A DNA stretch of 64,000 nt from an uncultured Gammaproteobacteria bacterium (GTDB taxonomy: Bacteria; Patescibacteriota; Microgenomatia; UBA1406; HO2-37-13b): the NCBI GenBank assembly GCA_964422025.1, contig CAYQYZ010000004.1, positions 7,768 to 71,767 on the forward strand, in the 5' to 3' direction. Both the position numbers and the translations under genes were made by a program. Every line of letters starts with the position of its first letter. Position 1 is the stretch's first letter. The notes beneath the pieces are model-generated. The model was given only the letters and a program-made list of their open reading frames with translations. It made no database searches and was not told the origin of the DNA. This document shows positions 1,768 through 61,441 of the stretch, piece after piece.

Positions 1768-1810
1768 GGCAACCTGGGAGGTGGAACGTGCGTGGCAACC
1801 TTCGAGGTTG
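1768..1810 (+). repeat. dispersed double-hairpin repeat, family 1, copy A
   Basis: GGCAACCTGGGAGGTGGAACGTGCGTGGCAACCTTCGAGGTTG; core palindrome CAACCT-TCGA-GGTTG; lies just 3' of the stop of the 1817..3025 gene. Confidence 0.8.
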
Positions 1811-1816
1811 TCAATA

Positions 1817-3025
1817 TTATTCGTAGCGGATTGCTTCAATTGGCGACAAGTTTGCAGCTTTGCGGGCAGGAAATACGCCGAAGATAATTCCAATGAGTGA
1901 AGATACGCCGAATGCGACTAAAACTGAAGTAAGATCAATATACGCTGGGAATACACGTTGGATAAAGAAAACAATTATGTATGAGATGGCGACTCCGCTA
2001 AATCCGCCGATAAGCGAAAGGATGACTGATTCAGCCAGGAATTGCGATAGAATATCTCGGCTTGTAGCCCCAATTGCTCTGCGTATTCCAATTTCACGAG
2101 TACGCTCCACAACTGATACATACATTATATTCATAATACCAATTCCACCGACGAGCAGGGAAATTCCTCCAATGAATACAAGGAGCGTGTTGAGTACTCC
2201 AAAGATCGAGCTTACTGCATTCAAAATCTCGGTTTGTTCGATAACGGAAAAATCATCTTCTTTATAGCGAATTAAGAGTGAATCGGTAACACGAGCTTTT
2301 GCGATGTTAACTGCATCTTCATTGGCGACTTTCACATAAATTCCCACAAAGTTTTTGTCGGGGTTAAAGCTGTATACCGACTTATACGGAGCGTATGTAA
2401 AACTGTCAAGATCGGGCCCTCCAAATCCACCGCCTCCTTTGGACTCAAGTACTCCGATTACTCGAAATGCCTGACCTTCGATTTGTACATTTCTGCCCAC
2501 AGCAGCCGCAGATGATCCAAAGAGCTTTTTTGCTAGAGTTGGGCCAATGACAACAATTTTAGACCGCTTATCTACGTCTGTCTTTTTAAATATGCGTCCT
2601 TGGTCAATGGTTAAGTTACGAATCGTAAACATGTCTGCGGTAGTACCATAGAGGTCGGAAACCTCTGTTTTTTTACCAGCGGTCATACTAACGGCTCGGC
2701 TAAAAATTGGCACTACATAGCTGACTGATGGTACTCGTTTTAGCTTTGCAACATCGCGCTCGTCGAATTTAACTCCTCCGAGTCCGCTTGAACCTCCACG
2801 AAAACTTCCACCCGAAAAAACTTTTCCCGGCAGTATGACAATTAAATTAGTTCCTAAACTCTCAAATTGATTTTTAATGTATTGTTTCAAGCCGAGCCCA
2901 AAAGCAATAAGAAGAACGACTGATGCTACGCCAATGAGAATTCCAAGCGATGTTAGAAAAGTGCGTAATTTGTTGCGCTTAAAGTCTTCCAAAGCCGTCT
3001 TGATTATAAATATAAAATAGTTCAT
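1817..3025 (-). CDS. ABC transporter permease, MacB/FtsX family
   Basis: N-terminal TM, large extracytoplasmic domain, then C-terminal FtsX-type 3-TM bundle (GGIGIMNIMYVSVVERTREIGIRRAIGA). Confidence 0.9.
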   Translation of the reverse strand: MNYFIFIIKTALEDFKRNKLRTFLTSLGILIGVASVVLLIAFGLGLKQYIKNQFESLGTNLIVILPGKVFSGGSFRGGSSGLGGVKFDERDVAKLKRVPSVSYVVPIFSRAVSMTAGKKTEVSDLYGTTADMFTIRNLTIDQGRIFKKTDVDKRSKIVVIGPTLAKKLFGSSAAAVGRNVQIEGQAFRVIGVLESKGGGGFGGPDLDSFTYAPYKSVYSFNPDKNFVGIYVKVANEDAVNIAKARVTDSLLIRYKEDDFSVIEQTEILNAVSSIFGVLNTLLVFIGGISLLVGGIGIMNIMYVSVVERTREIGIRRAIGATSRDILSQFLAESVILSLIGGFSGVAISYIIVFFIQRVFPAYIDLTSVLVAFGVSSLIGIIFGVFPARKAANLSPIEAIRYE

Positions 3026-3687
3026 GATATTTCTCCGTCGACAACTTTTATTTGGCGCTGTGCGCGTTTGGCAACATCGGCTTCGTGCGTAACAATAATA
3101 ACGGTAATTTTATCCTTTTTATTAAGCTCTTGAAGCAGGTCAAGGATCGTGTTCCCCGTTTTTGTGTCTAAATTTCCAGTAGGCTCATCGGCAAGAATAA
3201 ATGAGGGTTTCATAATTAACGCGCGGGCAATAGCTACGCGCTGTTGTTGACCTCCGGAAATTTTATTTGGAAATGAATCGGCTTTGCTGTCGATTCCGAA
3301 ACGCTTTAAAAGCTCCATTCCACGAACTTTTGGATCGTAATCGAGCTTTTTTCGTGCGTAAATGGTTGGAAGTAGTATATTTTCTAAAATCGTCAATTTA
3401 TTGATTAAATTAAACTGTTGAAACACGAATCCTACAAATTCACTGCGTAGTTGTGAAATTTCATCATCATTGAGCGTGGAAATGTCTACCCCGTTAATAA
3501 CGATCTTTCCGCTTGTAGGTTGATCTAGTAGCCCTAGAATATGCATAAGCGTTGACTTTCCGGAACCGGATGGCCCTAGAATAGCCACAAATTCTCCTTC
3601 CTTAATAGCTACTGAAACGTCTTTGAGGACCGTGAGTGATTCATCTTCGAGTTCGTACGTTTTGAATATCTTACTGAGTGAAATCAT
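3022..3687 (-). CDS. ABC transporter ATP-binding protein (MacB/LolD-type)
   Basis: Walker [10 protein letters not shown], signature [15 protein letters not shown], Walker [12 protein letters not shown]; ATG at 3687 (MISLSKIF...) preferred over track start 3750, which lies inside the upstream gene. Confidence 0.92.
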
Positions 3688-4702
3688 AAATAGTTTCGCC
3701 TTTGGACAGTCCAGATGTAATTTCGATGGTTTCATCGCCTTCAATGCCAATCTTTACAAATTTTTTATCTCTTTTGCCTTTCATAACCACATCGACGTAT
3801 TTTTTGCCATCAGCGTCTTCTTTAAGATAATTGGAAGGAATAGTGAGCGTGTCTTTTTTTTCGCGCATAGTAAATAAAACGTCACCCGTCATTCCCTGAC
3901 GATATTGCTCGTTCCATTCTCCGGATAACGGGAGTTTAATGGCATATACGGTAGAAGTTTCACCGGCCTTAGGTACGAAGGAAATGGATGAGACAGCTGA
4001 ATTAATGGTGTTATCCGAGAACGAATCAAGCGTAATAAGGCCTGTTTTGCCAATAGAAAGTTTGGTAACTTCGCTTTGATCAGCAGTTGAAGCAAAATAG
4101 ATTGATTCTGGGTTAATTATTTCAAACTGCGCAGTTGCCGGGGAAACATTAACGCCTGCGATAGGAGCGCTAATTGAAGTTACAATTCCTGCGATAGGAC
4201 TGTAAATATTGGCGTATTTAACTGCAATGTCAGTTAGTTCAACGTCGAGAACGGAATTATTTAATGTGTTTTGAGACTGATCAAGCGTGCGTGAAATGGC
4301 GTCGTTTAAGGCTACATCTTTATAATCTGCTTTTGTTTGGTCGAACACACTTCGGGAAATTGAATAGGTATTAAGCTGTTTTTGGAGCCGTTTCTTAAGA
4401 TCTCGTTGGTCAAGCGACGCAATGAATTGGCCCTTTTTGACATAATCGCCTTCTTTAACTGCTACTGCAGTAAGCATGCCGCCTGTTTGGAACGTAAGGA
4501 CAGTCTGTTCATCGGCATTAATGGTGCCAGAAAGTGTGAGCGTTTCTTTAATTGTTTCTTGTTTTACGGTTGTTTTTTGAACGCCTTCAAGTTCTGTGCC
4601 TGACTGCGCGCGATAAATAAGGAATACAAGGGCAAATGCAAGAACAGCAGTAACTTTTTTGTGAGTAAGTATCCATGTTTTTAGTGAAGTGATTTTGTTC
4701 AT
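3671..4702 (-). CDS. efflux transporter periplasmic adaptor (HlyD/MacA family membrane fusion protein)
   Basis: N-terminal TM anchor, lipoyl-like and coiled-coil segments, C-terminal beta-barrel; first gene of the adaptor-ATPase-permease operon. Confidence 0.8.
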   Translation of the reverse strand: MNKITSLKTWILTHKKVTAVLAFALVFLIYRAQSGTELEGVQKTTVKQETIKETLTLSGTINADEQTVLTFQTGGMLTAVAVKEGDYVKKGQFIASLDQRDLKKRLQKQLNTYSISRSVFDQTKADYKDVALNDAISRTLDQSQNTLNNSVLDVELTDIAVKYANIYSPIAGIVTSISAPIAGVNVSPATAQFEIINPESIYFASTADQSEVTKLSIGKTGLITLDSFSDNTINSAVSSISFVPKAGETSTVYAIKLPLSGEWNEQYRQGMTGDVLFTMREKKDTLTIPSNYLKEDADGKKYVDVVMKGKRDKKFVKIGIEGDETIEITSGLSKGETIYDFTQ

Positions 4703-4726
4703 ACTGCGCCATTATACCGTATATCT

Positions 4727-4897: not shown

Positions 4898-5581
4898 ATG
4901 ACACTCGTAACGAAAGTTACCTTCCACATTCTTGTGGCGACAGTCGCCTCATTTATGCTGGGAACCATACCGATAGCACGGGCAAATCTGGATTCAAAAC
5001 CCACGACAATGGCATGTACGACGATCTCCCTGTGTCCTAAAACGCCCAAGATATGTAATGCACCTGTTGGCGACCCAAAGCCTGAACAAGTCATTTTTGC
5101 TGCTTTACAGGCCGAGTATGTACCTCCTGCGCCTGTTGAACCTGTCGTTCTTGGAGCAACCGCTCCAGTAGTCGCTCCCGCCACGCCCGAAACTCCTATT
5201 GTTCCTGTAGTACCTGGTTTTGACGCCAGTGGCCAAAACAATCCTGATTTGATTTTGCAGCTTATTAATGCTATTCGAACCCAGGCGGGATTGCCTGCTT
5301 TTGAGAAAAATGACGCGCTTTGCGCAGTAGCCGAATCACGCACGCCTGAAATTCCGGTAGAAGTCGCAAATGGACGATTCCACAGTGGTTTACATGCTAA
5401 AAACTTGCCATACTGGATTACCGAGAACATGAAATATGGAAGTAATGATGGCGGAACCGTGCAATGGTGGATGAATTCACCGATTCATCATGCTGCCATT
5501 ATGGGTAATTCTAAATATAGCTGTGGAAAATGTGTCGGAAATGCGTGTATTCAACTGTTTACGAGCTTTGAACCTAAATAA
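4898..5581 (+). CDS. secreted CAP/SCP (YkwD-like) domain protein
   Basis: Signal/anchor, Pro/Val-rich linker, then C-terminal CAP-like block (LINAIRTQAGLPAFEKNDALCAVAESR ... WWMNSPIHHAAIMGNSKYSCGKC). Confidence 0.8.
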   Translation: MTLVTKVTFHILVATVASFMLGTIPIARANLDSKPTTMACTTISLCPKTPKICNAPVGDPKPEQVIFAALQAEYVPPAPVEPVVLGATAPVVAPATPETPIVPVVPGFDASGQNNPDLILQLINAIRTQAGLPAFEKNDALCAVAESRTPEIPVEVANGRFHSGLHAKNLPYWITENMKYGSNDGGTVQWWMNSPIHHAAIMGNSKYSCGKCVGNACIQLFTSFEPK

Positions 5582-6709
5582 TTATAGGAAGGGTTTCCAA
5601 TCTGCGATGGGTGCTGCGTTGTGTCCAATGAAATTCCATGCATACAGGTAAATTGCAGGGAGAATGATGAGAGACGCGAGTAGGAACTTCTTAGAAGTAA
5701 TGATTTTTTCACCAGCAATTACGGCTAGTGGCCATAACGGCAAGCTATATCGGGCAATATCACGGTGTTCTACGAAGATTGTGGCTATAAAAAACGTAAC
5801 AGCAAAGTAAAAAAAGCTCCGGTGAATGCTGTGTCGCAGTGTAACAATTGTTGCTGCATATATTCCAAAGTAAAAAATAACGTCTTCGAGCCAAATTGTA
5901 CCTACCCATTTTGCTGCTTGGTTGAACACTGCGTAGGGTGAAACAAGTGGAACAACTGCATTTGTGTGGAAATAGGCGAAAAAGTCGTTATATTGACCTG
6001 CGTATATTCCAAAAACTCCCAAAAGACCCAAAGGAATTATGAGGGTGTACATAGATCGCCAGTTAAATTCACGGTTGCTCAGGTATCTCTCTGCATACAC
6101 CAGCCCATAGGCGACAAATAGCAAAATTCCCGGTAACTTTGTGGCTACTGCAAGCGCTCCCAATACACCTGACAGGACTAATTTATTCTTCTCGAAAAGA
6201 TACAGCGAGCCTAGAATTAGTAGCATAAATAAACTCTCTGGCGAACCAATAGAACGTACGACTAGGAATCGGGGCAAAAACAGGAAGACGCCGGTTAAAA
6301 GCAGTGGTCGGCGCGATAAATTAAAGTCCTTAACTACATAATGAAGCAAAAACGCCAGGGCAATCGTGAAAACAACATTAACCAAAATCATGGCTCTCAA
6401 ATAGCCTGTTACTGGTCCTACCATAGCTATAAATGCCGGATACAGTGGTAAATGGGCCGCAAAATATTCCGGATTCAGGTTAAGACCTACTTGTAGACTC
6501 TGGATTGCAGATGGATTATAAAACGTTTTGGCCACAATTATATATAAAGGGCCGTCGTAATTGGCGTAAACTGTTAGAAAATTACGCATAAATGGCACCC
6601 ATGCAAGTAGGGTACTTCCTAAAACTAAATAGAGTAGAGTAAAATAAGGGTATATGAGCCGTTTCATAGATGCGATAAAGATCATTGTAACAAAAAATTT
6701 GTTCTTCAC
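5582..6709 (-). CDS. polytopic GT-C-like membrane glycosyltransferase (family uncertain)
   Basis: 375 aa, almost entirely TM helices; early loop YDGPLYIIVAKTFYN resembles mannosyltransferase-type GT-C enzymes. Track start 6709 is GTG; ATG at 6667 (MKRLIYPYF) sits 16 nt downstream of a TGTTACAAT box and may be the real start. Confidence 0.65.
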   Translation of the reverse strand: MKNKFFVTMIFIASMKRLIYPYFTLLYLVLGSTLLAWVPFMRNFLTVYANYDGPLYIIVAKTFYNPSAIQSLQVGLNLNPEYFAAHLPLYPAFIAMVGPVTGYLRAMILVNVVFTIALAFLLHYVVKDFNLSRRPLLLTGVFLFLPRFLVVRSIGSPESLFMLLILGSLYLFEKNKLVLSGVLGALAVATKLPGILLFVAYGLVYAERYLSNREFNWRSMYTLIIPLGLLGVFGIYAGQYNDFFAYFHTNAVVPLVSPYAVFNQAAKWVGTIWLEDVIFYFGIYAATIVTLRHSIHRSFFYFAVTFFIATIFVEHRDIARYSLPLWPLAVIAGEKIITSKKFLLASLIILPAIYLYAWNFIGHNAAPIADWKPFL

Positions 6710-8135
6710 GAGCTTACTTTTGGCAGGAGCGTTTTTGAGATTTTATAAACTTCAGGAATTTACGATATTTTTGTCGGATCAGGGAAGAGACGCTCTAATA
6801 GTTAAAGATATCGTTACATTAACCCATTTGCCCCTTATTGGAGCACCAACTTCCATAGGGCAAGTATTTTTGGGTCCTGCGTACTATTACTTAATAGCGC
6901 CATTTTTGCCGCTATTTAATTTCAATCCGGTAGGGCTTTCGTATGGAGTCGCTGTGTATTCATTACTTGGAGCAATTGCCTGCTACGCTGTTATTAAGCG
7001 GGAAATTAACATAGCTGTTGCTTTACTATTCTCTGTTTTAGTGCTTTTTTCGAGCGTACAACTTGAGCTTTCCCGTTTTTCGTGGAATCCAAACTTGTTG
7101 CCTATTTCATCATTTTTTGCGCTGTATTTTTTGTACAAGCTCTTTAACTCTCCGAAGGTGCTATATGGAGCGTTATTTGGGTTCTTTTTGGGACTATCGC
7201 TTCAGTTTCACTATCTTGCGCTACTCTTGGGACCTGCGATTGCAGTGTTTTATGGTGTGTTTTATATGCAAAACAGCGGATCTCTCAAAAAAACACTCAA
7301 GGCCACGATCATCGCCCCTACAATCGCGCTCTTTATTAGCATAAGTCCACTTATTCTATTTGACTTGCGACACAATTTTATTAATAGTTCAAACTTCTTA
7401 AAACTATTTACTGAGCAAAAAGATATTCCCCACGAACTTCTTTCCACCCGTTTCCTAAATGTAAACAATGCATTTATGAATTTGTTTTTCCATCATCAAT
7501 TTAGTGTAAGTCAAGCATTGGCTCTGAGCATTACGCTGTTTGCTATATATATTGTAGTAAGTAAGCGCTGGAGAGTTCCATATTTCATTCACATGAACGC
7601 GATTGCCGTGTTTTTGTTTGTAATTTTCTTTGCATTTTTGCAAACCCCCAGACATATTCACTATTTCACGCCCATATATTTGAGCTTTTCATTAGTGCTT
7701 GCTTACCTGCTCTCCTTACTCACACGACTTAAGAAGTGGGGAGTAATCGTTCTTGCAATTCTTCTTTTTGCATACTTGCGACTTAATTTATACAACTTGC
7801 CTTTCTTGGTTCCTGCTGGAAACGGACAAATTAATCATGCACAGCGAGTTGCACAGTTTATTGGTTCAAAAGTAGGAAACGAGCCATACAATATTGCAAC
7901 ATGGCCGGTGTATTTTACCGAAGACAATTATATTTATTTCTTAAGTTTACAAGGACAAGCTCCGGCTGACCGTAAAAAGCTTGAGATAACGAATCAAATG
8001 ATTGTATTATGTGGCGAGGAGCCGTGCTTAGTGGAAAACTCTCCGTCATGGAATATTTCTATGTTTGGACCTGCAAAAATTGATACAATGTGGGAAATAG
8101 AAGGAATAAAAGTATATAAATTACTTCATAAATAA
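6654..8135 (+). CDS. polytopic GT-C-like membrane glycosyltransferase, paralog family II
   Basis: 493 aa multi-TM; shares DQGRD first-loop motif and [ED][IL][KR]H[ND]F motif (FDLRHNF) with the 27064 and 28547 genes. Confidence 0.7.
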   Translation: MSRFIDAIKIIVTKNLFFTSLLLAGAFLRFYKLQEFTIFLSDQGRDALIVKDIVTLTHLPLIGAPTSIGQVFLGPAYYYLIAPFLPLFNFNPVGLSYGVAVYSLLGAIACYAVIKREINIAVALLFSVLVLFSSVQLELSRFSWNPNLLPISSFFALYFLYKLFNSPKVLYGALFGFFLGLSLQFHYLALLLGPAIAVFYGVFYMQNSGSLKKTLKATIIAPTIALFISISPLILFDLRHNFINSSNFLKLFTEQKDIPHELLSTRFLNVNNAFMNLFFHHQFSVSQALALSITLFAIYIVVSKRWRVPYFIHMNAIAVFLFVIFFAFLQTPRHIHYFTPIYLSFSLVLAYLLSLLTRLKKWGVIVLAILLFAYLRLNLYNLPFLVPAGNGQINHAQRVAQFIGSKVGNEPYNIATWPVYFTEDNYIYFLSLQGQAPADRKKLEITNQMIVLCGEEPCLVENSPSWNISMFGPAKIDTMWEIEGIKVYKLLHK

Positions 8136-11822: not shown

Positions 11823-13481
11823 ATGAAATTTGAATATAAAATCTTCTCGGTGATACTTGGCTTGATTCTGATATTTGTGTTAGGAGCAAAGCTGTTACCA
11901 ACAACCCGAACGATGTTTGAATTTCATGATCAAACCCAGGCCGCACGGATTGCGCAATTTACGGTGAATTTAGAAAATCTCAATATTCCTCCGCGAATGG
12001 CTCCGGACTTTTCATATGGTTTGGGATACCCGGTATTTAATTTTTATGCACCATTTGCGTATTGGGTGAGCTCACTCCTCTCCTTACTCGGCATGACGAC
12101 GATAGCCGCCTTAAAAACATCCTTTTTACTTGCGATTGTTGTTGCAGCTGGGGGAATGTATTTATTTTTGCGTGAGCAATTTGATGAGGCAGCATCACTC
12201 CTCGGTGCAACACTGTATGTAACGTCGAGCATCATTCCCTTAGAAATTTTTGTACGTGGAAATCTGGCTGAGATGTGGTTTTTAGCACTGTTTCCAACGG
12301 CTTTATATTTGCTTATGAGGAACGCAAGAGAGAGTTCTGAGAGGGTGTTTGTGATGACAGCCTTGACTCTGTCCTTTTTGCTAACAGTACACAACATAAT
12401 GTCGCTTTTAGCGGGAGTGTTAGTGGTGATATTTATTGGATTATTGAAGCATAAAAAACGAAACATTCTCGCGCTTTCACTCGGAGTCCTTGCTGGATCA
12501 TATTTTTTAATTCCCGCTTTGCTTGAGTCGCAACTTACTTACGCAACAACCGTTGCGGCGATGACAAATTATGCGGATCATTTTTTGTGTGCAAAACAAC
12601 TATGGAAAGGAATGTGGGGATTTGGAGGAAGTGTTCCCGGATGCGTAAGTGATGGAATGTCGTTTGCTTTGGGGAAAATGCAGTGGGTGCTAGGGCTTGT
12701 AGGCGGCGGAGCGTTGATGTTTACGTTTTATGAGAAGCGAAACTCTCTGAGAGCATATATTGAACACAATGTCCATTCGCGAATCTCACTCTACGTCGCT
12801 CTGTTAACAGGAGTCTCACTCTTTCTAACACTTTATCAATCTGCATTTATATGGAAAATCTTATATCCAATCCTTTCACTCTTCCAGTTTCCGTGGAGAT
12901 TTTTGGTATTTGGTGTATTTGGACTAGCTTATTTTGGAGCATATGGAGCGTACGTTTTGCGCGAAAGACTTCCAGTTATCTCTCACAAGGCTTGGGCCTT
13001 CATCCTTTTTGTCGTGAGTGTCGGACTAATGGCGAACGTCTGTACTCTCTTTAGAGGACAATCAGTAAATAATACGCTATACGAGAGTATGTATATTTCA
13101 GATAATTACATTCGTAATTCAGTCGCATACAAGATACCTGAGTACTTGCCCAAAACGGCAGATTACGCATTTTGGAGGAGCTTTGAAGACAAAAATACAG
13201 TACCATATAGTGATGGACAGTTTGAGAAGCAGACACTGAATATTCACTATTTTCCGTATTGGAAAATTAGAGTAGATGATGAGGAAGTTGTGCCAGATAA
13301 ATTTGATAGTTTTGGTCGGCCAATTATGGTGATTCCAAGTGGATCTGAACTCTTAGTCACCTATGAGCAAACGGCAATAGAGAAATTTGGAGATGGAATA
13401 ACGTTAGCGGCGATAATACTCTTACTGGGAATCGGTATTAACAACAAATTATGGATACGAATAAAGAACATCGAGAGTTAA
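11823..13481 (+). CDS. polytopic membrane protein, GT-C-like paralog family III
   Basis: 552 aa; shares FQFPWR and YFP.WK..VD..V blocks with the 19053..20741 gene. Confidence 0.65.
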   Translation: MKFEYKIFSVILGLILIFVLGAKLLPTTRTMFEFHDQTQAARIAQFTVNLENLNIPPRMAPDFSYGLGYPVFNFYAPFAYWVSSLLSLLGMTTIAALKTSFLLAIVVAAGGMYLFLREQFDEAASLLGATLYVTSSIIPLEIFVRGNLAEMWFLALFPTALYLLMRNARESSERVFVMTALTLSFLLTVHNIMSLLAGVLVVIFIGLLKHKKRNILALSLGVLAGSYFLIPALLESQLTYATTVAAMTNYADHFLCAKQLWKGMWGFGGSVPGCVSDGMSFALGKMQWVLGLVGGGALMFTFYEKRNSLRAYIEHNVHSRISLYVALLTGVSLFLTLYQSAFIWKILYPILSLFQFPWRFLVFGVFGLAYFGAYGAYVLRERLPVISHKAWAFILFVVSVGLMANVCTLFRGQSVNNTLYESMYISDNYIRNSVAYKIPEYLPKTADYAFWRSFEDKNTVPYSDGQFEKQTLNIHYFPYWKIRVDDEEVVPDKFDSFGRPIMVIPSGSELLVTYEQTAIEKFGDGITLAAIILLLGIGINNKLWIRIKNIES

Positions 13482-14899
13482 AACGAAATACGGTAATTAG
13501 TGCATTTAGTTTATTTTTTCAAAGTGGATTTAGTGCCGTGTTGGGGTTGGTAGCAAATTTGGTTTTAACAATCCTACTTGCTCCGGCTGTTTTTGGAATT
13601 TATATTACCGTTCTATCACTTATTTCATTACTCAATTATTTTTCCGATATCGGACTTGCGGCTTCACTTGTACAGAAACATGAAATTAGCGATGAGGATA
13701 TCTCAACGACGTTCACGCTTCAACAGCTCCTTATAATCACCATTATTGCAATTGGATTTTTAGGTACTAATTTTGTTACAGAATTTTATAAATTACCCGC
13801 AGCAGGAGTTCATTTGTATTGGGCGCTATTGTTTTCATTTTTTATATCATCGCTTAAAACAATTCCCTCGATATTGCTTGAACGCAAAATTCAATTTCAA
13901 AAAATTGCATTTGTTCAAATAACAGAAAATGTGGTTTTTTATTGCGCCGTAATTTTATTTGCATTATTAGGATATGATTTAGCAAGCTTTACATACGCCG
14001 TAATGTTACGAGCGATAACCGGACTTATTCTTATTTACACGATTTCATTTTGGAAACCAACATTTGGGATTTCAAAAAGTAGTCTACATACGCTGTTGTC
14101 ATTTGGTATTCCATTTCAGGCTAGTTCATTTTTAGCATTGTTTAAAGATGATTTAATAATTTTGTTTTTAAGTAAAGTATTAGGATTTGATGCAGTCGGG
14201 TATATAGGATGGGCGAAAAAGTGGGCGGAAACTCCGATACGGATTATTATGGATAACTTAAGTCGCGTGCTGTTTCCTGTGCTTGCGCGAATTCAGCATG
14301 ATAAAGAAAAAATTTCACGACTTATTGAAAAGATTTTATATTATCAGACAATGCTTTTGGCTCCGGCAATTTTTGGACTATTTATGACAATGCCGGTAAT
14401 GGTTCAGTTGATTCCAAAGTATGCCAAGTGGGAACCAGCGCTGCCATTATTTTACCTTTTCTGTATTAGTGCATTCTTCTCGTCGTATTCGACACCATTT
14501 ATGAACTTGTTCAATGCGCTAGGAAGAGTGAAGACGTCGTTTGCATTCATGTTATTCTGGACAGTAACTACATGGATTTGTACACCACTGTTTACTGCTA
14601 AATATGGAATGTTGGGATTCCCAATTACTCAACTAATATTAGCAACAAGCTCGCTGTTGGTGGCCGGACAAGCTAAGAAATTAGTTGAATTTAGATTTTG
14701 GCATTCAATCTATAAACCATTGATTGCAACAGTCGTTATGGTGATATGTATTTATGCTGGGTTGTCAATAATGCCAGTAACATACTTATCGCTATTACTT
14801 GCAGTAGTCGGTGGAGCGGGAGTATATTTTGGAGTCTTATTTTTCGTATTTAATGTGAACCCTATTAATGAAGTTAAATCACTATTTAATCATGAATAA
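13451..14899 (+). CDS. Wzx-like oligosaccharide/polysaccharide flippase (MOP superfamily)
   Basis: 482 aa, ~12-14 TM, N-terminal pattern KRNTVISAFSLFFQSGFSAVLGLVANLVL typical of polysaccharide biosynthesis (Wzx) proteins. Confidence 0.8.
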   Translation: MDTNKEHRELKRNTVISAFSLFFQSGFSAVLGLVANLVLTILLAPAVFGIYITVLSLISLLNYFSDIGLAASLVQKHEISDEDISTTFTLQQLLIITIIAIGFLGTNFVTEFYKLPAAGVHLYWALLFSFFISSLKTIPSILLERKIQFQKIAFVQITENVVFYCAVILFALLGYDLASFTYAVMLRAITGLILIYTISFWKPTFGISKSSLHTLLSFGIPFQASSFLALFKDDLIILFLSKVLGFDAVGYIGWAKKWAETPIRIIMDNLSRVLFPVLARIQHDKEKISRLIEKILYYQTMLLAPAIFGLFMTMPVMVQLIPKYAKWEPALPLFYLFCISAFFSSYSTPFMNLFNALGRVKTSFAFMLFWTVTTWICTPLFTAKYGMLGFPITQLILATSSLLVAGQAKKLVEFRFWHSIYKPLIATVVMVICIYAGLSIMPVTYLSLLLAVVGGAGVYFGVLFFVFNVNPINEVKSLFNHE

Positions 14900-15869
14900 T
14901 AATACAACCTCGAAGGTTGAACACGCACTACCAACCTCGAAGGTTGTCAAATCAGCCGTTATAGTAGTAAAAGATTACCCGGAACATATTTTCAAAACGC
15001 TCGATTCAGTTCGCTCTTTTGTAGATGAGGTAGTCATTGGCGATATTGGTATTGATGAGGAGCTGTTGGCGAAGCTGAAAAAGATTGAGAATATAAAAAT
15101 AGTTACTGTTACAAAAAAAGTTCCCTATGTTGAATTAATTCGTGAGGAGTTGCATGCGCAAGCAAAAGGAGACTATATTTTAGTTCTTGATTCGGATGAG
15201 ATTGTTCCATCTGCTCTCGCCACCCTGTTGGACTCGGCAGTAGGGAAGTATGACTATGTAAAAGTTCCCCGAAAGAATATTATTTTTGGAAAGTGGATTG
15301 AACATTCACGCTGGTGGCCTGATTATCAAGTGAGATTTTTTAAGAAAGGCTCAGTTGTATGGCCTAAGGTGCTTCATGCACAACCTAAAGCTGAAGGAAG
15401 CGAGCTCATAATCGAACCCAAGGAGGAGAATGCACTTGTTCATTATAATTACAGGGATCTGGATGAATACCTCTCAAAAGCTCCACGGTATGCAAAGGCA
15501 GAGGCGGCAGGGATCCTGAAACAAGTTCAGGATGACAATACTGCTCAAAGTGATACGAGCTTTACCTTCTTTGGTAAAAAAGCGCTGTCTGAGTTTGTTG
15601 GACGATACTTTGCGGATGATGGATATAAAGATGGCATGCATGGATTTGTATTGGCATTCTTGCAAATGATGTATTACTTTCTAGTGTATTTCTATGTATG
15701 GGAATTGGGAGGAAGAAAAGAAGTAGAACAAAAAAGTCTTTTACAGGGCACAGTGCAATTCTTTTCGGATGCATTGTATGAAATAAGTTTCTGGGGAAAG
15801 AAAAAAGGTTTGAGTAATATTTCATTTGTAAAATCGAAATTACATAACTTAGTCCGTAAGTTGTCATGA
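14892..15869 (+). CDS. GT2 glycosyltransferase (paralog of 30144..30998)
   Basis: DSDE (DxD) motif, PRKNIIFGKWIEHSRWWPDYQVRFF block shared with 30144; ATG at 14892 overlaps the flippase stop; contains family-1 and family-2 repeat copies in frame. Confidence 0.8.
   Translation: MNNNTTSKVEHALPTSKVVKSAVIVVKDYPEHIFKTLDSVRSFVDEVVIGDIGIDEELLAKLKKIENIKIVTVTKKVPYVELIREELHAQAKGDYILVLDSDEIVPSALATLLDSAVGKYDYVKVPRKNIIFGKWIEHSRWWPDYQVRFFKKGSVVWPKVLHAQPKAEGSELIIEPKEENALVHYNYRDLDEYLSKAPRYAKAEAAGILKQVQDDNTAQSDTSFTFFGKKALSEFVGRYFADDGYKDGMHGFVLAFLQMMYYFLVYFYVWELGGRKEVEQKSLLQGTVQFFSDALYEISFWGKKKGLSNISFVKSKLHNLVRKLS
14905..14946 (+). repeat. double-hairpin repeat, family 1, copy B (inside CDS)
   Basis: CAACCTCGAAGGTTG-AACACGCACTAC-CAACCTCGAAGGTTG; translated in frame as TTSKVEHALPTSKVV at the N-terminus of the GT2. 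Confidence 0.85.
15511..15537 (+). repeat. hairpin repeat, family 2, copy a (inside CDS)
   Basis: GGATCCTGAAACAAGTTCAGGATGACA; 8-bp inverted repeat ATCCTGAA/TTCAGGAT; read as GILKQVQDD. Confidence 0.85.
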
Positions 15870-21378: not shown

Positions 21379-21513
21379 ATGGAATATCCATTATTAAACA
21401 ATACGCCTAAGGGGCTTGACAGTTCCCGTAGGAAGCCCTTATTAATCCTAATACTTGTTTTCTTCGCAATGATAATCCTTGGAGTTATTCTTAATTTGCC
21501 TTATATATGGTAA
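21379..21513 (+). CDS. possible 44-aa single-TM micro-protein (below the ORF-track cutoff)
   Basis: ATG 2 nt after the stop of the 20786 gene; MEYPLLNNTPKGLDSSRRKPLLILILVFFAMIILGVILNLPYIW; basic stretch then a clean TM helix. Confidence 0.35.
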   Translation: MEYPLLNNTPKGLDSSRRKPLLILILVFFAMIILGVILNLPYIW

Positions 21514-23188
21514 CTGTCTTATTCTGAAAGATCTGCTCGATACTCCCTTGGCAACCTTCGAGGTTAGTAATCGGGCGCGATGTAAGTTCATAGAGATAGT
21601 CGACTTCATTAAGTACTTCGCAATTCCAGTCTAAGCTTTTCTCCATACGCTCCTGGTAGTCGACTCCTGTTAATTGTAATTGAACTTCATCGGCGATGTA
21701 TTGTTGTTTGCCCGAAAACGCAGCAATATATGCGGAGTCATTCATGTGCGAAAGGGGAATTGGCGCTTGTGTAGCTAGTCTGTTAATTTCTTTATTCGGG
21801 AGAGGTGAGAAAATAACACCGGATGGTTGGGTTTTAAGGAATGAAAGCGCGGCAAGCTCCTGTTCCGGAATATATGAGTGTGCTGGGAACTGTGCGAACG
21901 TTTTGAAAATGTCGATAGATGAGGGAATAGTGAGAAGGATAATGAAAAGAGTAATTATAACTCCCCCGCGCTTAAACCTCTTTACAAGTTCGTAGAGTGC
22001 GCTTGCCGTAAATATGTTCGCTAAGAAAAACGCATAGTAACTAAACTGAACCGTGTTCCACCACTGCCCTTTTTGAACAAAGAATATATTCAAGAACATA
22101 GCAAAAATAATAGTGAGCGTGATAAGGAAATGAAATGTCGTAAACTCTCTCTTAACGAGCAACTTGAGAACGTAGAGGAGTCCGAGGATTCGGGTTCCAA
22201 AATTGAGAAGTAAGAAGAGTGCTATTACTTGAAATTGGATTAAGACAAGACGCGGGCTGAACTTTCCAGAATTTTCAAGAAAATATTTTGCATTAACTTT
22301 GTCGGGCATGTACAGGAGGTTTGGATCCTCGATAAGCGGATACACAGTGGCCAGAGGTTTAAATGTCATAATTGCACCACCAGTTGTGGGTGCGAAAGGA
22401 TTATAAAAAAGGAGAACGGAAAGTGCAGCAAACGCTCCCAAAAGCCCAAAACGCGTTACAAACGAGCTCAGTTTTCGCTCCTTTATAGACTGAATGAGAA
22501 AGTATGTCCCAACAATGAATAGACTAATTACTCCTCCGTAGAATTTAAGTGCGATGTTAAGAGCAACAAGAAGACTTAAAAGAAAAATCGAACGTGCATC
22601 ACTCTTGCCTACCTTAATCATGATAAGGATGTACAGGAGGACACACAGCGAGAATCCGAATTGCACGTTGGTAAGCGTAAGAAGCGACTGCATTGCCAGT
22701 AACGCTCCCGATCCTTCGATGGTTTTATCTTTTAAGAGTGTAATGAAATACGAAAATGAGCCAGAAAAATACATGAAAAAAAGAAGAAGCCCAACGAATA
22801 GACTCGAATCATGCAATTTGCGCCCGAGTTTAATAACGAGCGCGGTAAAGAGTGTAAACCACATTAGTGGAAGAATCTTAAAGTACGTAATAAGAGCGGG
22901 GATTCCAAGTTTAGAAAATACAAAGATAACGATATCAAGAAAAAAATTGTAACCTGAAAGTTGAGCTCCTGAAAATGTGGGAGCAACAAAAGGTAAATCG
23001 GTAAATGAGGCGACCACAATTGCTAAATGCCAGATTGCATCGTGTCCATGGGCTCCCCAGAAAAAAAGTCCGCACGAATCCTTAAAGCAGTATTCACTTC
23101 CACTGGGCATAATAGTAAGCATGTATGAAACAAAGGCAACAAGGATAAGCAAAAGTAGTGCGGGGTATTTTTTGATATAATCGATCAT
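21491..23188 (-). CDS. polytopic membrane protein, GT-C/O-antigen-polymerase-like (family uncertain)
   Basis: 565 aa, >10 TM plus soluble C-terminal domain; located in the glycosylation cluster; no diagnostic motif recognised. Confidence 0.6.
   Translation of the reverse strand: MIDYIKKYPALLLLILVAFVSYMLTIMPSGSEYCFKDSCGLFFWGAHGHDAIWHLAIVVASFTDLPFVAPTFSGAQLSGYNFFLDIVIFVFSKLGIPALITYFKILPLMWFTLFTALVIKLGRKLHDSSLFVGLLLFFMYFSGSFSYFITLLKDKTIEGSGALLAMQSLLTLTNVQFGFSLCVLLYILIMIKVGKSDARSIFLLSLLVALNIALKFYGGVISLFIVGTYFLIQSIKERKLSSFVTRFGLLGAFAALSVLLFYNPFAPTTGGAIMTFKPLATVYPLIEDPNLLYMPDKVNAKYFLENSGKFSPRLVLIQFQVIALFLLLNFGTRILGLLYVLKLLVKREFTTFHFLITLTIIFAMFLNIFFVQKGQWWNTVQFSYYAFFLANIFTASALYELVKRFKRGGVIITLFIILLTIPSSIDIFKTFAQFPAHSYIPEQELAALSFLKTQPSGVIFSPLPNKEINRLATQAPIPLSHMNDSAYIAAFSGKQQYIADEVQLQLTGVDYQERMEKSLDWNCEVLNEVDYLYELTSRPITNLEGCQGSIEQIFQNKTVTIYKAN
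21549..21566 (+). repeat. family 1 half-element, copy G (inside CDS, opposite strand)
   Basis: TTGGCAACCTTCGAGGTT; read on the minus strand as NLEGCQ near the C-terminus of the 21491 gene. Confidence 0.6.
23173..23181 (+). promoter_or_regulatory. extended -10 box TGATATAAT 7 nt upstream of the ATG at 23189 (predicted leaderless)
   Basis: The box lies within codons 3-6 of the divergent 21491..23188 gene; start codons abut as CAT|ATG at 23186-23191. Confidence 0.5.
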
Positions 23189-32031: not shown

Positions 32032-32864
32032 AAATTTCAGTAATCATTCCGGTTTATAAAAATAAGGAACTTTTGAAAAAAAGTTTTGAAAATAATTATG
32101 AATTTTTGAAAGGATGTGAAATTATTGTGGTAAACGATTTTCCGGATGAGTCGATTGCGGATGTGTTTGAAAAATATTCTGATGTGAAACAAATTGTGAA
32201 TGAAAAAAATATGGGATTTGCAAATACCGTGAATCGTGGTGCAAAAGAAGCTTTGGGTGATTTATTATTCTTGTTAAATTCAGATGTCATTTTGAAAAAT
32301 GATTCATACAAAAAAGCAATAAAACATTTTGAAGAAAATGAAAAATTATTCGCAGTAAGTTTTGCACAAATTGAGCAAGACGGAAAAACAGTAGGAAAGA
32401 ATAGGGTATTTTTTCAGAATGGATTTATTATGCATGAGAAAGCCAGAGATCTCTTATTTGGACCTACCGGTTGGGCGGAAGGTGGAACGTGTGTTATACG
32501 GAGAGTATATTTTGAAAAACTTGGCGGATTTGATGGGGCATACTCCCCTTTTTATTGGGAGGACGTTGACCTATCGTTGCGAGCTAAAAAGCGTGGGTGG
32601 GATGTTATTTTTGATCCGGAGATATTAGTCGAACATCATCACGCTTCAACAATTGGAAAATATTACAAAGATGATTTTCGAGAACTGATCTCTTATCGGA
32701 ATCAGTTTATATGTACATGGAAGAATGCGATGGGTTCACAGAGAATTTCACATGCACTCCATTTGCCGTTTATATTGGTAAAATCTATAATCACCGGAAA
32801 TTGGAATTTAGTGAAAGGATTTTTTAAGGCAATTCTGGTAACCTCGGAGGTGGAACATGCCTAG
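32028..32864 (+). CDS. GT2 glycosyltransferase
   Basis: ISVIIPVYKNKELL, VVNDFPDES, LNSDV, YWEDVDLSLRAKKRGW; the last 8 codons and the TAG stop lie in family-1 repeat copy C. Confidence 0.88.
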   Translation: MKISVIIPVYKNKELLKKSFENNYEFLKGCEIIVVNDFPDESIADVFEKYSDVKQIVNEKNMGFANTVNRGAKEALGDLLFLLNSDVILKNDSYKKAIKHFEENEKLFAVSFAQIEQDGKTVGKNRVFFQNGFIMHEKARDLLFGPTGWAEGGTCVIRRVYFEKLGGFDGAYSPFYWEDVDLSLRAKKRGWDVIFDPEILVEHHHASTIGKYYKDDFRELISYRNQFICTWKNAMGSQRISHALHLPFILVKSIITGNWNLVKGFFKAILVTSEVEHA

Positions 32865-32880
32865 TCAACCTCGGAGGTTG
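32837..32880 (+). repeat. double-hairpin repeat, family 1, copy C
   Basis: GGTAACCTCGGAGGTGGAACATGCCTAGTCAACCTCGGAGGTTG followed by TTTT; ends 10 nt before the ATG at 32890. Confidence 0.85.
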
Positions 32881-34551: not shown

Positions 34552-34595
34552 GGCAACCTGCGGGATTTGATAGGCACTGGCAACCTTCGAGGTTG
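34552..34595 (+). repeat. double-hairpin repeat, family 1, copy D (terminator-like)
   Basis: GGCAACCTGCGGGATTTGATAGGCACTGGCAACCTTCGAGGTTG followed by TTTT, between convergent genes. Confidence 0.8.
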
Positions 34596-34599
34596 TTTT

Positions 34600-35088
34600 C
34601 TACGCCTTTCCAATAAATGGAAGGGGAAACGGCTGGGAAAGATATTTTTTGTACAATTCCAAATCATCGCCATGATCGAAAGCTATTTCCTCAGCCGGAG
34701 GTAAGGTGTCGATCGAAAACCATGCGAGTTGTTTAACTTCCTCATCGCCTTCAGTAAAGTCAGAATCAGTCTTTACAATATATACAAATTCAATAATTTG
34801 TCGATCTTCGGCAGGACGATCAGGGTTGTCTTTAATATGCATAAGTGTCATGTCGCCCGCCATGCAACTGGTTTCTTCTAGGATTTCTCGGGCAAGCGCT
34901 TGATGCAAATTTTCATCGCGATTTACAAATCCGCCAATTAGCCCCCATTTTCCATATTCAAGCATTGGTTTCCCATGAACGGTTCCCCGTTTTCCTAGAA
35001 GGATTTTTCCGTCTTTTATAAGAATCGCGTTAACAGTGACATGTCGTAAAAGAGCGGACCCGCCGTCTTCAAAAGTGCATGTGATCAT
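34600..35088 (-). CDS. NUDIX hydrolase
   Basis: Nudix box GGFVNRDENLHQALAREILEETS. Confidence 0.9.
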   Translation of the reverse strand: MITCTFEDGGSALLRHVTVNAILIKDGKILLGKRGTVHGKPMLEYGKWGLIGGFVNRDENLHQALAREILEETSCMAGDMTLMHIKDNPDRPAEDRQIIEFVYIVKTDSDFTEGDEEVKQLAWFSIDTLPPAEEIAFDHGDDLELYKKYLSQPFPLPFIGKA

Positions 35089-38010: not shown

Positions 38011-38011
38011 A

Positions 38012-41609: not shown

Positions 41610-41876
41610 ATGATTGACATATCACAAGTATTTATTGCATCTGCGATTACCATTATGACGGTGGTTTTGGTGGTAGTGGGAATTAATTTGATTATTTTCT
41701 TGCGAAATATGAGTAAAATCATTGCTCGGGTTAACGGAATTGTTGACGAACTTCAAAAGATTGGCATGCATGTAGGACAAGGAGCCGGAGAAATTGTTGG
41801 ATTTGTTTCAGGAATCAAGGGGTTCTTTAGAATTGTAGATCTATTATCGAAAAAAAAGAAGAATGACAAAAAATGA
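41610..41876 (+). CDS. small membrane protein (DUF948-like)
   Basis: N-terminal TM (FIASAITIMTVVLVVVGINLIIF) followed by a helical region; track start 41574 is the TTG of a TTGACA box; ATG at 41601 or 41610 more likely. Confidence 0.55.
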   Translation: MIDISQVFIASAITIMTVVLVVVGINLIIFLRNMSKIIARVNGIVDELQKIGMHVGQGAGEIVGFVSGIKGFFRIVDLLSKKKKNDKK

Positions 41877-42174
41877 ACACGATACACATAATAAATCCTT
41901 TTGGTCGGGACTTTCGCTCGGCGTAATCGTTGGTGCTTCGGGACTTGCCCTGTTTGGAACAAAAAAAGGACGGGAATTGGTACATAAACTTCTGGAAGTA
42001 ACCGATAATTTTGAAGAAACTGCTGGGGGATTTATTAATGATATGGAACACGAGATTGAAAGTCATGAAGGCCTAGGCGCCGCCAAAAAAGCCGGATTTA
42101 CCGCTATTGAGTCATTGTTGGATAAAATTCAATCAATAATGCCCGACAGAAATCCTCCGAAGGTGTTGAAATAA
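41863..42174 (+). CDS. YtxH-like small membrane-associated protein
   Basis: FWSGLSLGVIVGASGLALFGTKKGRE motif characteristic of the YtxH family. Confidence 0.65.
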   Translation: MTKNEHDTHNKSFWSGLSLGVIVGASGLALFGTKKGRELVHKLLEVTDNFEETAGGFINDMEHEIESHEGLGAAKKAGFTAIESLLDKIQSIMPDRNPPKVLK

Positions 42175-42184: not shown

Positions 42185-42230
42185 GGCAACCTCCGGGCCG
42201 GATCAGGCACGTTCAACCTCTTAGGTTGAA
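42185..42230 (+). repeat. double-hairpin repeat, family 1, copy E (doubles as terminator)
   Basis: GGCAACCTCCGGGCCGGATCAGGCACGTTCAACCTCTTAGGTTGAA then TTTTG; the right half is identical to copy F. Confidence 0.85.
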
Positions 42231-42246: not shown

Positions 42247-42275
42247 TTGACAAGAATAATGGCTTGTAGTATCAT
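42247..42275 (+). promoter_or_regulatory. sigma-70-type promoter for the rpoB operon
   Basis: TTGACA (42247-42252), 17-nt spacer, TATCAT (42270-42275); about 120-nt leader to the rpoB ATG. Confidence 0.6.
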
Positions 42276-58921: not shown

Positions 58922-58930
58922 TGATATAAT
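58922..58930 (+). promoter_or_regulatory. extended -10 box TGATATAAT 8 nt upstream of the ATG at 58939 (predicted near-leaderless)
   Basis: Conserved box AACAGTCCGTGTGATATAAT (17/20 identical to 56711-56730). Confidence 0.55.
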
Positions 58931-58938
58931 AGGTTCGT

Positions 58939-60122: not shown

Positions 60123-60131
60123 TGATATAAT
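60123..60131 (+). promoter_or_regulatory. extended -10 box TGATATAAT upstream of the 60158 gene
   Basis: TGnTATAAT ending 26 nt before the ATG. Confidence 0.45.
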
Positions 60132-60157
60132 AGAGCATTACAAAAGTCTAAAACTGT

Positions 60158-60997
60158 ATGCCAAAAGAACATATGGGTCGCAATTTACTGGCAACTGGTC
60201 TTACGATTGCGGGTGTTGCTTTGGGACTTCAGAAGCACAAATCCATTCAGGAACAGCTTAATGCAGAAGCTCATGGAGCAATTCCTCCGATTGTTGAACA
60301 TCTTAGTGGACGATATGGCGTTGATCTTGCACTTCAAATTTCCGAATACGAAAGAGACTTGGGTTTCCCTTTTGAAGAACCCTTGCCCGTTGATAGCTTA
60401 CGAGCTGCACGTGTAATTCAAGATGAACTTTCAATATTACCACCTGATCTAGTAAAAAAGATTGGCCCCAAACGTATTGTTCTATCAGATAGGTTTGGGT
60501 ATGTTGGTTTTGGTGAAATGACTGGCTTTACGTTTCCAAAGTGTGCCTTTGTATATATATCTACTCATAAAGGCGATCTAACAAGAGATAATTCTCACAG
60601 ACTCACCCTAGGACATGACGTGCAGCATGAGTTTCATCATGTGGCTGACGCATCAGATGATATATGGGTCGATGATCAAGCATGGAATCAGCTTTCCTCT
60701 AAGTCTAACAAATTTCATATTTTTGGGCATCCTGGTTTTATATCTGAATATGCTCAGGCAGGTCCCAATGAAGATCAGGCTGAAATTGCCGCATTACTTT
60801 TCAAACAAAATACGCCTCAAGGACGTGAGGCATATGATCAAATTGATGACCCCATAGTTCTTGCTAAAGTAGAAGAGATGAAACGTCGGTATGAGGAATG
60901 GAGTGATGGACTGATTAGTGATCAATATTGGATCGATTTGCGCGCGGGAATTGTTGGTGAGGCGTATTGGAATGAACGCGATGTAAATCGCGATTAA
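60158..60997 (+). CDS. membrane-anchored putative zinc metallopeptidase (HExxH, gluzincin-like)
   Basis: N-terminal TM (LLATGLTIAGVALGL); HEFHH motif; downstream GPNEDQAEIAALLF helix could supply the third ligand Glu. Confidence 0.6.
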   Translation: MPKEHMGRNLLATGLTIAGVALGLQKHKSIQEQLNAEAHGAIPPIVEHLSGRYGVDLALQISEYERDLGFPFEEPLPVDSLRAARVIQDELSILPPDLVKKIGPKRIVLSDRFGYVGFGEMTGFTFPKCAFVYISTHKGDLTRDNSHRLTLGHDVQHEFHHVADASDDIWVDDQAWNQLSSKSNKFHIFGHPGFISEYAQAGPNEDQAEIAALLFKQNTPQGREAYDQIDDPIVLAKVEEMKRRYEEWSDGLISDQYWIDLRAGIVGEAYWNERDVNRD

Positions 60998-61338
60998 CTT
61001 TCTTTGCTAGTGTCCGATTCGCTTGAGGTAGGTTCCATTTTATTCTTTCTTCCTTTCAAAATCATTCCCCAATGATAGAGATATAGCGGTAGGCCGACGG
61101 CAAGCATGGAAATAGATGAGGACATTTGGCGTTGTCGGGTTTTTTCTGCTTCATCACGAGAGCGTGTTTCATTTTCCTCTTTTGTCAGCATAGTGTCGTT
61201 GTAAGTGTAGACATCGACGTTGGGGAAAAAGTACGTTTTGATTCCGAGGTCAATGAGCTGGCTGGTTCCAAAGACGATGATAATGAGTCCCACGAAAGAG
61301 AAGAGGTATAGGTAAAGGAGGCGAAGTGAGAGTTTCAT
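60994..61338 (-). CDS. small two-TM membrane protein with charged loop
   Basis: TMs LLYLYLFSFVGLIIIVFG and ISMLAVGLPLYLYHWGMIL separated by an E/R-rich loop. Confidence 0.55.
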   Translation of the reverse strand: MKLSLRLLYLYLFSFVGLIIIVFGTSQLIDLGIKTYFFPNVDVYTYNDTMLTKEENETRSRDEAEKTRQRQMSSSISMLAVGLPLYLYHWGMILKGRKNKMEPTSSESDTSKES

Positions 61339-61395
61339 GAGATGAGTGTAAATGAGGGAGGAGGTGAATGCAAGGGGAAAATTTGGACCGTTTCG

Positions 61396-61441
61396 TGCAA
61401 CCTGCGGGCTAAGCTAGGCACGTTCAACCTCTTAGGTTGAA
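61396..61441 (+). repeat. double-hairpin repeat, family 1, copy F
   Basis: TGCAACCTGCGGGCTAAGCTAGGCACGTTCAACCTCTTAGGTTGAA; the right 27 nt are identical to copy E. Confidence 0.85.

Follow-up and report, generated by a model that had tools for sequence, protein, structure and literature searches.

Tagged hairpin repeats in a Patescibacteria-like genome are likely REP-type elements of a RAYT-like Y1 transposase encoded outside the window

The window analysed here, the whole 64,000-nt stretch of contig CAYQYZ010000004.1, contains six full copies of a short hairpin repeat, each 42-45 bp long and placed between open reading frames (ORFs), with gene overlap solely in copy C (Table 1). We scanned the window for CAACCT-NNN-AGGTTG with at most one mismatch, counting both strands and using 100 shuffles as the null, and found 9 sites (18 strand-hits) against an expectation of 0.93 strand-hits, or about 0.5 sites; 0 of the 100 shuffles reached the observed number. 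The motif GGCAACCT occurs 6 times in the window, where 1.15 occurrences are expected. A repeat at these coordinates had been reported in a preliminary description made from the letters alone, and its existence, far beyond chance, is borne out, as is the identity of the 27-nt right halves of copies E and F. We also built a covariance model, R1, from 37 modules consisting of the hairpin and a short conserved tag beside it. Applied to the window with filters off, the model gave six significant loci, which are the six full copies (E values of 4e-7 to 6e-4), so that the seven copies originally counted become six: a supposed half copy at 21549 is a hairpin with one mismatch and no tag, and a supposed half site at 23338 was not found by R1. 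These two non-significant half sites are also what had been taken for copies inside coding sequence, and no full copy lies wholly within a gene. The solo hairpin at the first of them may be what is left of a decayed copy, or may match by chance.

Table 1. Coordinates of the hairpin repeats in the window and of doublets and tandem arrays of this hairpin at other loci
Feature	Location	Strand	Arrangement	Model R1 or remark
Copy A	1768..1812	- (tag GCAC on - strand)	type I doublet	35.9 bits on -
Copy B	14905..14946	+	type I doublet	35.5 bits on +
Copy C	32837..32880	-	type I doublet	25.7 bits on -, 21.9 bits on +
Copy D	34552..34595	+	type II	35.3 bits on +
Copy E	42185..42228	+	type II	38.3 bits on +
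Copy F	61396..61439	+	type II	39.7 bits on +
Doubtful solo hairpin, GGCAACCT-TCG-AGGTTA	21550..21566		one mismatch, no tag	E ~2; inside ORF 21491-23188
Thermoanaerobaculia genome (SMAG_U8461)	L055 868-1010, L067 3727-3875, L059, L065, L002		arrays	
Promineifilum and Ardenticatenaceae	L013, L030, L050		CAACCT hairpin arrays	
Omnitrophota	L023		CAACCT hairpin arrays	
Other loci	L024; L062		CAACCT hairpin arrays	
Chitinophagales	L063		CAACCT hairpin arrays	
Actinomycetota	L007		CAACCT hairpin arrays	

Because the window alone is too small to define a repeat family, relatives were sought elsewhere. A pattern scan taking one genome per species gave 66 loci, of which 22 came from a single metagenome-assembled genome (MAG), CAYPSA01; its eight contigs (0.92 Mb) are syntenic with the window at 78-88% nucleotide identity, and we refer to it as the sister genome. 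By the strict pattern it holds 25 elements. Thus the search for further copies suggested at the outset, which was to expose the repeats as chance palindromes if it found none, returned many. The window's own organism was placed through its RpoB, a protein of 1072 aa whose closest named relative is from Candidatus Roizmanbacteria (84% identity), followed by Microgenomates and Patescibacteria; E. coli-type RpoBs (1340-1359 aa) are not the best matches among solved structures and score lower. These affinities point to a bacterium of the Candidate Phyla Radiation (CPR, Patescibacteria) resembling Candidatus Roizmanbacteria, and the label 'Gammaproteobacteria' carried by CAYPSA01 looks wrong on sequence grounds.

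The core hairpin measures 15 nt in total, with a 6-bp stem containing 3 G-C pairs and a loop of 3 nt rather than the 4 nt first described; the pattern as originally written (CAACCTNNNNAGGTTG) finds nothing. The repeating unit is 27 bp, made up of this hairpin and a 12-nt spacer that holds the asymmetric tag TA[CG]GCAC. What can be recognised as a module spans about 30 nt and consists of the unpaired tag, 3 nt, the hairpin CAACCT-NNN-AGGTTG and often CCA; it can be written TA[CG]GCAC-NNN-CAACCTNNNAGGTTG or, more fully, cTA[CG]GCAC-KGK-CAACCTNNNAGGTTG-CCA. Across 44 modules the 5' flank of the hairpin reads (C/T)-A-(C/G)-G-C-A-C-K-G-K, the tag occupying positions -10 to -4, and G-7, A-5 and the stem are invariant, with C-6 and C-4 present in at least 39 of the 44. 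The loop takes several forms (CTT/AAG, TCG/CGA, CGG, GGA and GAC) and occurs in either orientation relative to the tag. GTAG is confined to a subset of modules, as GTGCGTAG-T-hairpin on the complementary strand (L014, L054). A longer stem was considered and rejected: inspection of the units gave no consistent covariation at positions -1 to -3 against +15 to +17, and the core stem stays at 6 bp.

Full copies come in two arrangements. Type I is a doublet of 27-bp period, hairpin-spacer-hairpin, and type II is a decayed hairpin, CAACCT-nCGGG-N7, followed by AGGCAC-KKK-hairpin. The distance from the first CAACCT to the second is 27 nt, with copy A alone at 26. Besides doublets there are short arrays, such as the four 27-bp units in tandem at L014 1241-1336 in the sister genome; a CRISPR array was rejected as an explanation, since the spacers of L014 are identical to each other. 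When folded as single-stranded DNA (ssDNA), the type I copies A, B and C each fold into a single long, imperfect hairpin whose loop is the spacer (-10 to -11.3 kcal/mol, z from -3.4 to -4.7), and type II copies form a single hairpin of 6-8 bp. Complementary loops are found in a few doublets only (e.g. L066 5492).

Copy A joins a degenerate hairpin, CAACCT-GGG-AGGTGG, to a perfect one, CAACCT-TCG-AGGTTG, through the spacer AACGTGCGTGG, and is flanked by two genes on the - strand, 5 nt from the stop of a MacB/FtsX-like gene (1817-3025). Copy B, which begins 6 nt past the stop of a polysaccharide-synthesis gene (13451-14899), has two perfect CAACCT-CGA-AGGTTG hairpins with AACACGCACTAC in between, a 12-nt spacer that recurs unchanged in a doublet from the same sequencing run (L069 1598-1639). 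Copy C (TAACCT-CGG-AGGTGG, spacer AACATGCCTAGT, CAACCT-CGG-AGGTTG) supplies the last 8 codons and the TAG stop (32862-32864, within the tag CCTAGT) of a glycosyltransferase gene at 32028-32864, and the next gene starts 10 nt beyond it. Copy D, CAACCT-GCGGGATTTGAT-AGGCAC-TGG-CAACCT-TCG-AGGTTG, sits between the convergent genes 32890-34518 (+) and 34600-35088 (-). Copy E lies 11 nt past the stop of a YtxH-like gene (41863-42174) and 19 nt upstream of the -35 box of a promoter-like site at 42247-42275 ahead of rpoB, and copy F, between two - strand genes, is 5 nt from the stop of gene 61444-62925. A seventh copy, of type II and inverted relative to E and F, is found just beyond the window between divergent genes (L001 3509-3550); L001 is a Logan contig of run SRR12762304 that was reached through a window-end protein, is 100% identical to the window over 5.1 kb and extends 7.5 kb further. 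Rfam at gathering thresholds reports three tRNAs alone in the window, and the repeats match no known riboswitch, leader or small RNA.

The copies had been described as all lying in one orientation, which is true only of the earlier alignment, where the intact hairpin is set to the right. By the asymmetric tag (GCAC or GTGC) the six divide 4:2 between the strands. Nor is there a bias relative to replication direction, for which a test had been proposed: over the window, same-run and sister loci, the strand of the tag compared with local GC skew gives 18:12 (p = 0.36). We rejected a role in replication or strand polarity of the Chi, KOPS or uptake-sequence kind on these two ratios and on density, which at about 1 per 10-37 kb is far under that of uptake sequences. 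The skew itself is positive across the whole window (1-64000) and appears to switch sign within 7.5 kb past the right end (local skew near L001 3524); either a switch in gene orientation or a replication landmark could underlie this.

Over the window, same-run and sister loci some 34 of the 40 elements fall between genes; the other 6 were called within coding sequence, at least 2 of them through an artefact of ORF extension. Elements stand 2-20 nt from gene ends, with 22 between co-directional genes, 6 between convergent and 5 between divergent ones (the L001 copy and 4 sister copies), and they have no promoter-proximal preference. Integron attC sites were also considered and rejected: the termini misfit the R''/R' consensus (RYYYAAC / GTTRRRY), and the copies, which are syntenic, are found between genes of either strand.

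To follow individual copies, we set intergenic regions of the window against their orthologs in the sister genome, and found A, C, E and F at the same sites in both. The ortholog of F (L018 1790-1831) differs at 1 of 46 positions, the flanking DNA being about 81% identical, and those of A (L011 2340-2381) and E (ending at L008 6690) differ from the window copies in loop and spacer. Copy C, type I in the window, is type II in the sister (L056 3069-3110); the two match at 34 of 47 positions when one is inverted against 32 of 48 in direct alignment, and the tag matches at 12 of 13 when inverted. On this comparison copy C was probably flipped in place between the species, with modest support. Copy D is missing from its orthologous site, where an unrelated G+C-rich hairpin stands instead, and a sister-specific element (L008 2164-2205) occupies a place where two window genes abut. 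Taken together, the differences in presence, type and loop indicate that copies come, go and are altered within the time it takes species to diverge.

Several further observations concern the same regions. Similarity between window and sister (37990-38020 against L008 2150-2220) ends exactly at the sister-specific copy, which marks a synteny breakpoint. The G+C-rich hairpin belongs to a second sister repeat, ACGAGCTCCGGGGGCTCGT, that is absent from the window; it lies at the orthologous site of copy D (L056 ~1380-1420) and again beside the ortholog of copy E (L008 ~6585-6610). In the interval from LytR_C to the release-factor gene, one strain has a single doublet (L069 1598-1639) and the other has two doublets bracketing an extra ORF of 181 aa (L068 6016-6682), which has no Pfam match; this is a gene insertion or deletion bounded by repeats. 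The promoter-like site right after copy E is near consensus (TTGACA-17-TATCAT), and in the sister (L008 ~6700-6800) a 71-bp insertion splits it yet supplies a TTGACA of its own, correctly spaced from the original TATCAT.

The preliminary description had likened the family to repetitive extragenic palindromic (REP) sequences or miniature inverted-repeat transposable elements (MITEs), had seen no transposase in the window and had suggested looking elsewhere for one of the REP-associated tyrosine transposase (RAYT) or IS200-like kind. The searches support this reading. A phmmer search with --max finds no Y1 transposase in the window. For the wider search the first queries were sequences of the IS608 TnpA and the E. 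coli RAYT, used as leads only, and every match was re-tested against Pfam, NCBIfam and the Protein Data Bank (PDB). In a Candidatus Berkelbacteria MAG, a Y1_Tnp ORF (L046 5296-5973; PF01797, 43.6 bits) stands beside a matching hairpin, and is flanked by two in all, with apices ACCT-CGT-AGGT and ACCT-ACG-AGGT. The homolog of its protein in the sister genome, encoded at L012 5214-5858 (phmmer 7.8e-34; PF01797 29.3 bits, cut-off 23), is the sole Y1 gene in the ~176 kb of sister loci searched. It is flanked within 2-110 nt by copies of the repeat, type II on the left (5063-5104) and type I on the right (5860-5901), which are inverted relative to each other, with tags GTGC and GCAC and loops CTT and AAG.

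An ortholog, P0004 (L069 4958-5596), is encoded on another contig of run SRR12762304; it is 65% identical to the sister Y1 protein, and its gene lies between doublets at L069 4805-4846 and 5598-5639, here in direct orientation. The neighbourhood is alike in L012, L068 and L069, with an ABC ATPase (ABC_tran), FtsX, the Y1 gene and LTD. The same-run contig and its synteny with the sister, rather than physical linkage, suggest that the window's organism has its own copy of the Y1 gene.

A search of protein collections returned 86 relatives, the named ones from Patescibacteria, Uhrbacteria or Beckwithbacteria besides two distant Bacteroidetes proteins. The motifs CLMPNHFH (the HUH motif, H89-F-H91) and SRYIHxNP (with the catalytic tyrosine, Y149) are invariant in 20 family members. 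The best NCBIfam model is NF047646, 'REP-associated tyrosine transposase', at 35-70 bits, against at most 20 bits for the IS200 model NF033573; the individual scores (P0004 59.1, P0001 47.9 and the L046 protein 70.5 bits) fall below the curated cut-off of 80 bits. By its sequence the Y1 protein is a divergent relative of RAYT and not an equivalog under NF047646. A sequence profile reaches the PDB weakly, at ISDra2 TnpA and 4er8 (E about 0.003-0.005). We also modelled P0004 with AlphaFold (AF2; pLDDT 89.5, pTM 0.88), and the best Foldseek match of this model is 4er8, the E. coli TnpA-REP bound to a REP hairpin (E 4e-8, TM 0.72, root-mean-square deviation 2.8 A). The transposases of IS608, ISDra2 and IS200 match it at E 7e-5 or weaker (~1e-4), with deviations above 5 A for ISDra2 and IS608.

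We consider it likely, on the sequences and the modelled fold, that the elements are REP-type sequences of a RAYT-like Y1 HUH transposase encoded outside the window. They share with REPs a short palindrome, many dispersed copies (6 per 64 kb window, others on same-run contigs and in the sister) and an extragenic position, and outside the window a RAYT-like gene is flanked by the same repeats (L012, L069). In the systems described by Messing et al. 2012 (PMC3479197), a conserved tetranucleotide lies 5' of the REP hairpin and REPs are arranged in doublets; RAYTs are Y1 HUH enzymes, present at a single species-specific locus flanked by REP doublets; and tag and hairpin are both required for cleavage of ssDNA. 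By analogy with E. coli TnpA-REP and IS200/IS605 (PMC3479197), the transposase would bind the folded hairpin on single-stranded DNA. It may also read the unpaired tag near the hairpin foot, and its catalytic tyrosine would then cut and rejoin the DNA nearby, so that copies could be made, lost or flipped.

Several observations weigh against a REP/RAYT identity. The window has no RAYT gene, and presence of one in the same genome rests on the same-run contig and the sister synteny. The classical GTAG directly at the hairpin foot is not seen; instead there is a different conserved tag, 3 nt away from the foot. The hairpin, at 15 nt, is far shorter than the 35-40 nt of E. coli REPs, and P0004 scores 59 bits against the RAYT cut-off of 80 curated at NCBI. 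Finally, the flanking hairpins are direct in L069 and at most metagenome loci, which resembles the ends of IS200/IS605 elements and not the classical inverted pair.

This last point leads to the main alternative, that the Y1 gene and its two hairpins are an autonomous insertion sequence (IS) of the IS200/IS605 type and that the short elements are its non-autonomous derivatives, similar to MITEs or PATEs, and not parts of a domesticated RAYT/REP system. Flanking hairpins that are mostly direct, with loops the same at 14 metagenome loci and flipped at 3, are what the left and right ends of such an IS look like; Pfam, moreover, puts the protein in Y1_Tnp, 'Transposase IS200 like', and it lies under the RAYT equivalog cut-off. 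Against this, the Y1 gene is found at one syntenic locus in three related genomes (L012, L068 and L069) and as a single copy in the sister loci searched, the NCBIfam RAYT model clearly beats the IS200 model, and the fold is nearest to TnpA-REP. Furthermore, the dispersed elements are hairpin modules only, rather than paired IS ends around a deleted interior. We therefore regard an IS with its derivatives as improbable.

The elements might instead be immobile regulatory hairpins of the host, intrinsic terminators or mRNA-stabilising 3' structures, alike through common function. Copies do abut gene ends, copy D lies between convergent genes, TTTT follows copies C and D, and E. coli REPs are known to acquire such roles (PMC3479197). 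However, of copies C, D and E, which had been read as intrinsic terminators, none was called in a consensus terminator scan of 30-45 kb, and that region has no excess of terminator-like sites (8, where shuffles have 12.2). Copies A and F are each antisense to the genes on both sides, divergent genes flank five elements, the stem has 3 G-C pairs only, and neither the conserved unpaired tag nor the flanking of a transposase gene would be explained. We rejected an intrinsic terminator family on the uncalled copies and on the antisense and divergent contexts, and hold immobile regulatory hairpins in general to be very unlikely; a role as 3'-end RNA hairpin, terminator or RNA-stabilising structure is possible for single copies such as C or D, not as a property of the family. 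Another way to view the perfectly palindromic half sites, with their variable centre and fixed 27-bp spacing, is as binding-site arrays for a dimeric protein on double-stranded DNA (a regulator, a nucleoid protein or a parS-like system) that reads CAACCT/AGGTTG. We give this very little credence, as the elements are not preferentially near promoters, loop orientation and the presence of copies vary between the sister species, and Y1 genes throughout the clade have hairpins of this kind at their sides, whose stems vary in step with the protein.

Taking the elements, then, as REP-type sequences, their nearest counterpart is the REP/BIME-RAYT system of E. coli, Pseudomonas and Stenotrophomonas, which likewise has many short extragenic palindromes, a conserved unpaired tag on the 5' side of the hairpin, doublets joined by a short linker and one Y1 HUH gene at a conserved, repeat-flanked locus, as seems to be the case here; the present protein fold is also nearest to 4er8. 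Besides the smaller hairpin and the displaced tag (TA[C/G]GCAC in place of GTAG), the present system differs in that its doublets are often direct rather than inverted, in its 27-bp tandem arrays, in a protein of ~212 aa with a conserved C-terminal extension that falls under the NCBIfam RAYT cut-off, and in its host, a CPR genome of about 1 Mb. The family lacks the unpaired GTAG or CGTC at the palindrome end that defines the GTAG-tagged REP superfamily (Di Nocera 2013, PMC3733652). With the REPINs of Bertels and Rainey (PMC3116915, PMC3337134) it shares a doublet that appears to be the replicating unit, type I doublets predicted to fold as one long hairpin with a 12-nt spacer loop, and what appears to be vertical inheritance of both elements and RAYT gene. 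Unlike in REPINs, each REP here is a perfect mini-palindrome, so that a doublet can fold as two small hairpins or as one long one, and loops are complementary, making a true inverted pair, in some copies only.

IS200/IS605 elements such as IS608 and ISDra2 offer a Y1 HUH transposase, subterminal hairpins on both sides that are mostly direct, and an expected ssDNA chemistry. They differ from the present gene, which is at a conserved syntenic locus, is apparently single-copy, and in profile and fold is closer to RAYT; its hundreds of metagenome relatives are also without an accompanying tnpB in the loci examined, no systematic tnpB search having been made. The motif forms NH[IFV]H and YIHxNP or YIxNNP recall TnpA-Y1 class 2 subclasses, e.g. 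2.4 and 2.6, in the Y1 phylogenomic survey of 1354 complete genomes by Quentin et al. 2018 (PMC6006769), whose text contains no CPR name. One preprint has 'REP-associated tyrosine transposase' and a CPR term together, but for an archaeal gene hit only. The phrase 'repetitive extragenic palindromic' was not found in the best-ranked CPR papers, and we found no description of REP/RAYT in CPR.

We scanned metagenomes with an alignment of the Y1 family and obtained at least 583 relatives. Perfect 3-nt-loop hairpins with matched stems lie on both sides of the gene at 19 of 70 metagenome loci (those fetched with enough flank) against 0 of 32 control regions 1 kb away. The stems of the closest relatives end in (C)ACCT-NNN-AGGT(G), as in the window family, and those of distant ones in AGGT-NNN-ACCT or GGC-CAG-GCC. 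Homologs from Uhrbacteria and Beckwithbacteria are flanked by matched 3-nt-loop hairpins as well, the Uhrbacteria hairpin having CTAGGCAC just before it. Among the metagenome relatives direct orientation is usual, as the loop counts given above reflect. Many of the RAYT contigs are only 1-2 kb long, suggesting that the repeats probably break CPR assemblies and could serve as a practical marker.

Nearly all work on REP/RAYT systems concerns Proteobacteria, Cyanobacteria and Bacteroidetes, and it has been argued that these systems are not ordinary selfish elements but replicators of long standing, passed on vertically; CPR genomes are among the most streamlined known. A REP/RAYT system in CPR bacteria would widen the known host range without being a new kind of system, and its unusually small and simple REP, a 15-nt hairpin with a 7-nt tag, would be of use for studying target recognition by RAYTs. 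More tentatively, and with less than an even chance in our estimate, the loci found in metagenomes may represent a large undescribed clade of RAYTs spread throughout Patescibacteria, with a protein of ~215 aa bearing the conserved C-terminal extension and with minimal 3-nt-loop REPs whose apex co-diversifies with it. Such a clade would persist vertically in streamlined genomes of ~1 Mb, where its REPs would account for a large part of the DNA between genes, provide stop codons and lie at synteny breakpoints. If so, arrays of CAACCT-NNN-AGGTTG in MAGs of Acidobacteriota, Chloroflexota, Omnitrophota and Bacteroidota would mean either that the clade has spread horizontally or that hairpin recognition is under a common structural constraint.

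Such doublets and tandem arrays, of 26-27-bp period, are indeed seen in MAGs of several unrelated phyla (Table 1). Since the search pattern did not require a complete second hairpin, they are more than a product of ascertainment. No Y1 gene was found within the 8 kb fetched around these loci. The unit in the Thermoanaerobaculia MAG is GGTGTAGGG-CAACCTCTCAGGTTG-CC, which is a GTAG-tagged REP. The pattern also matched in Clostridia MAGs (L006, L016, L037, L042 and L048), there within a conserved stretch (CAACCTCTTCGATATCAGTAATACCGTCAACCTCAAAGGTTG) common to several gut Clostridia and with no second hairpin; these loci look unrelated to the repeat family, and L037 additionally carries an unrelated IS200-like ORF.

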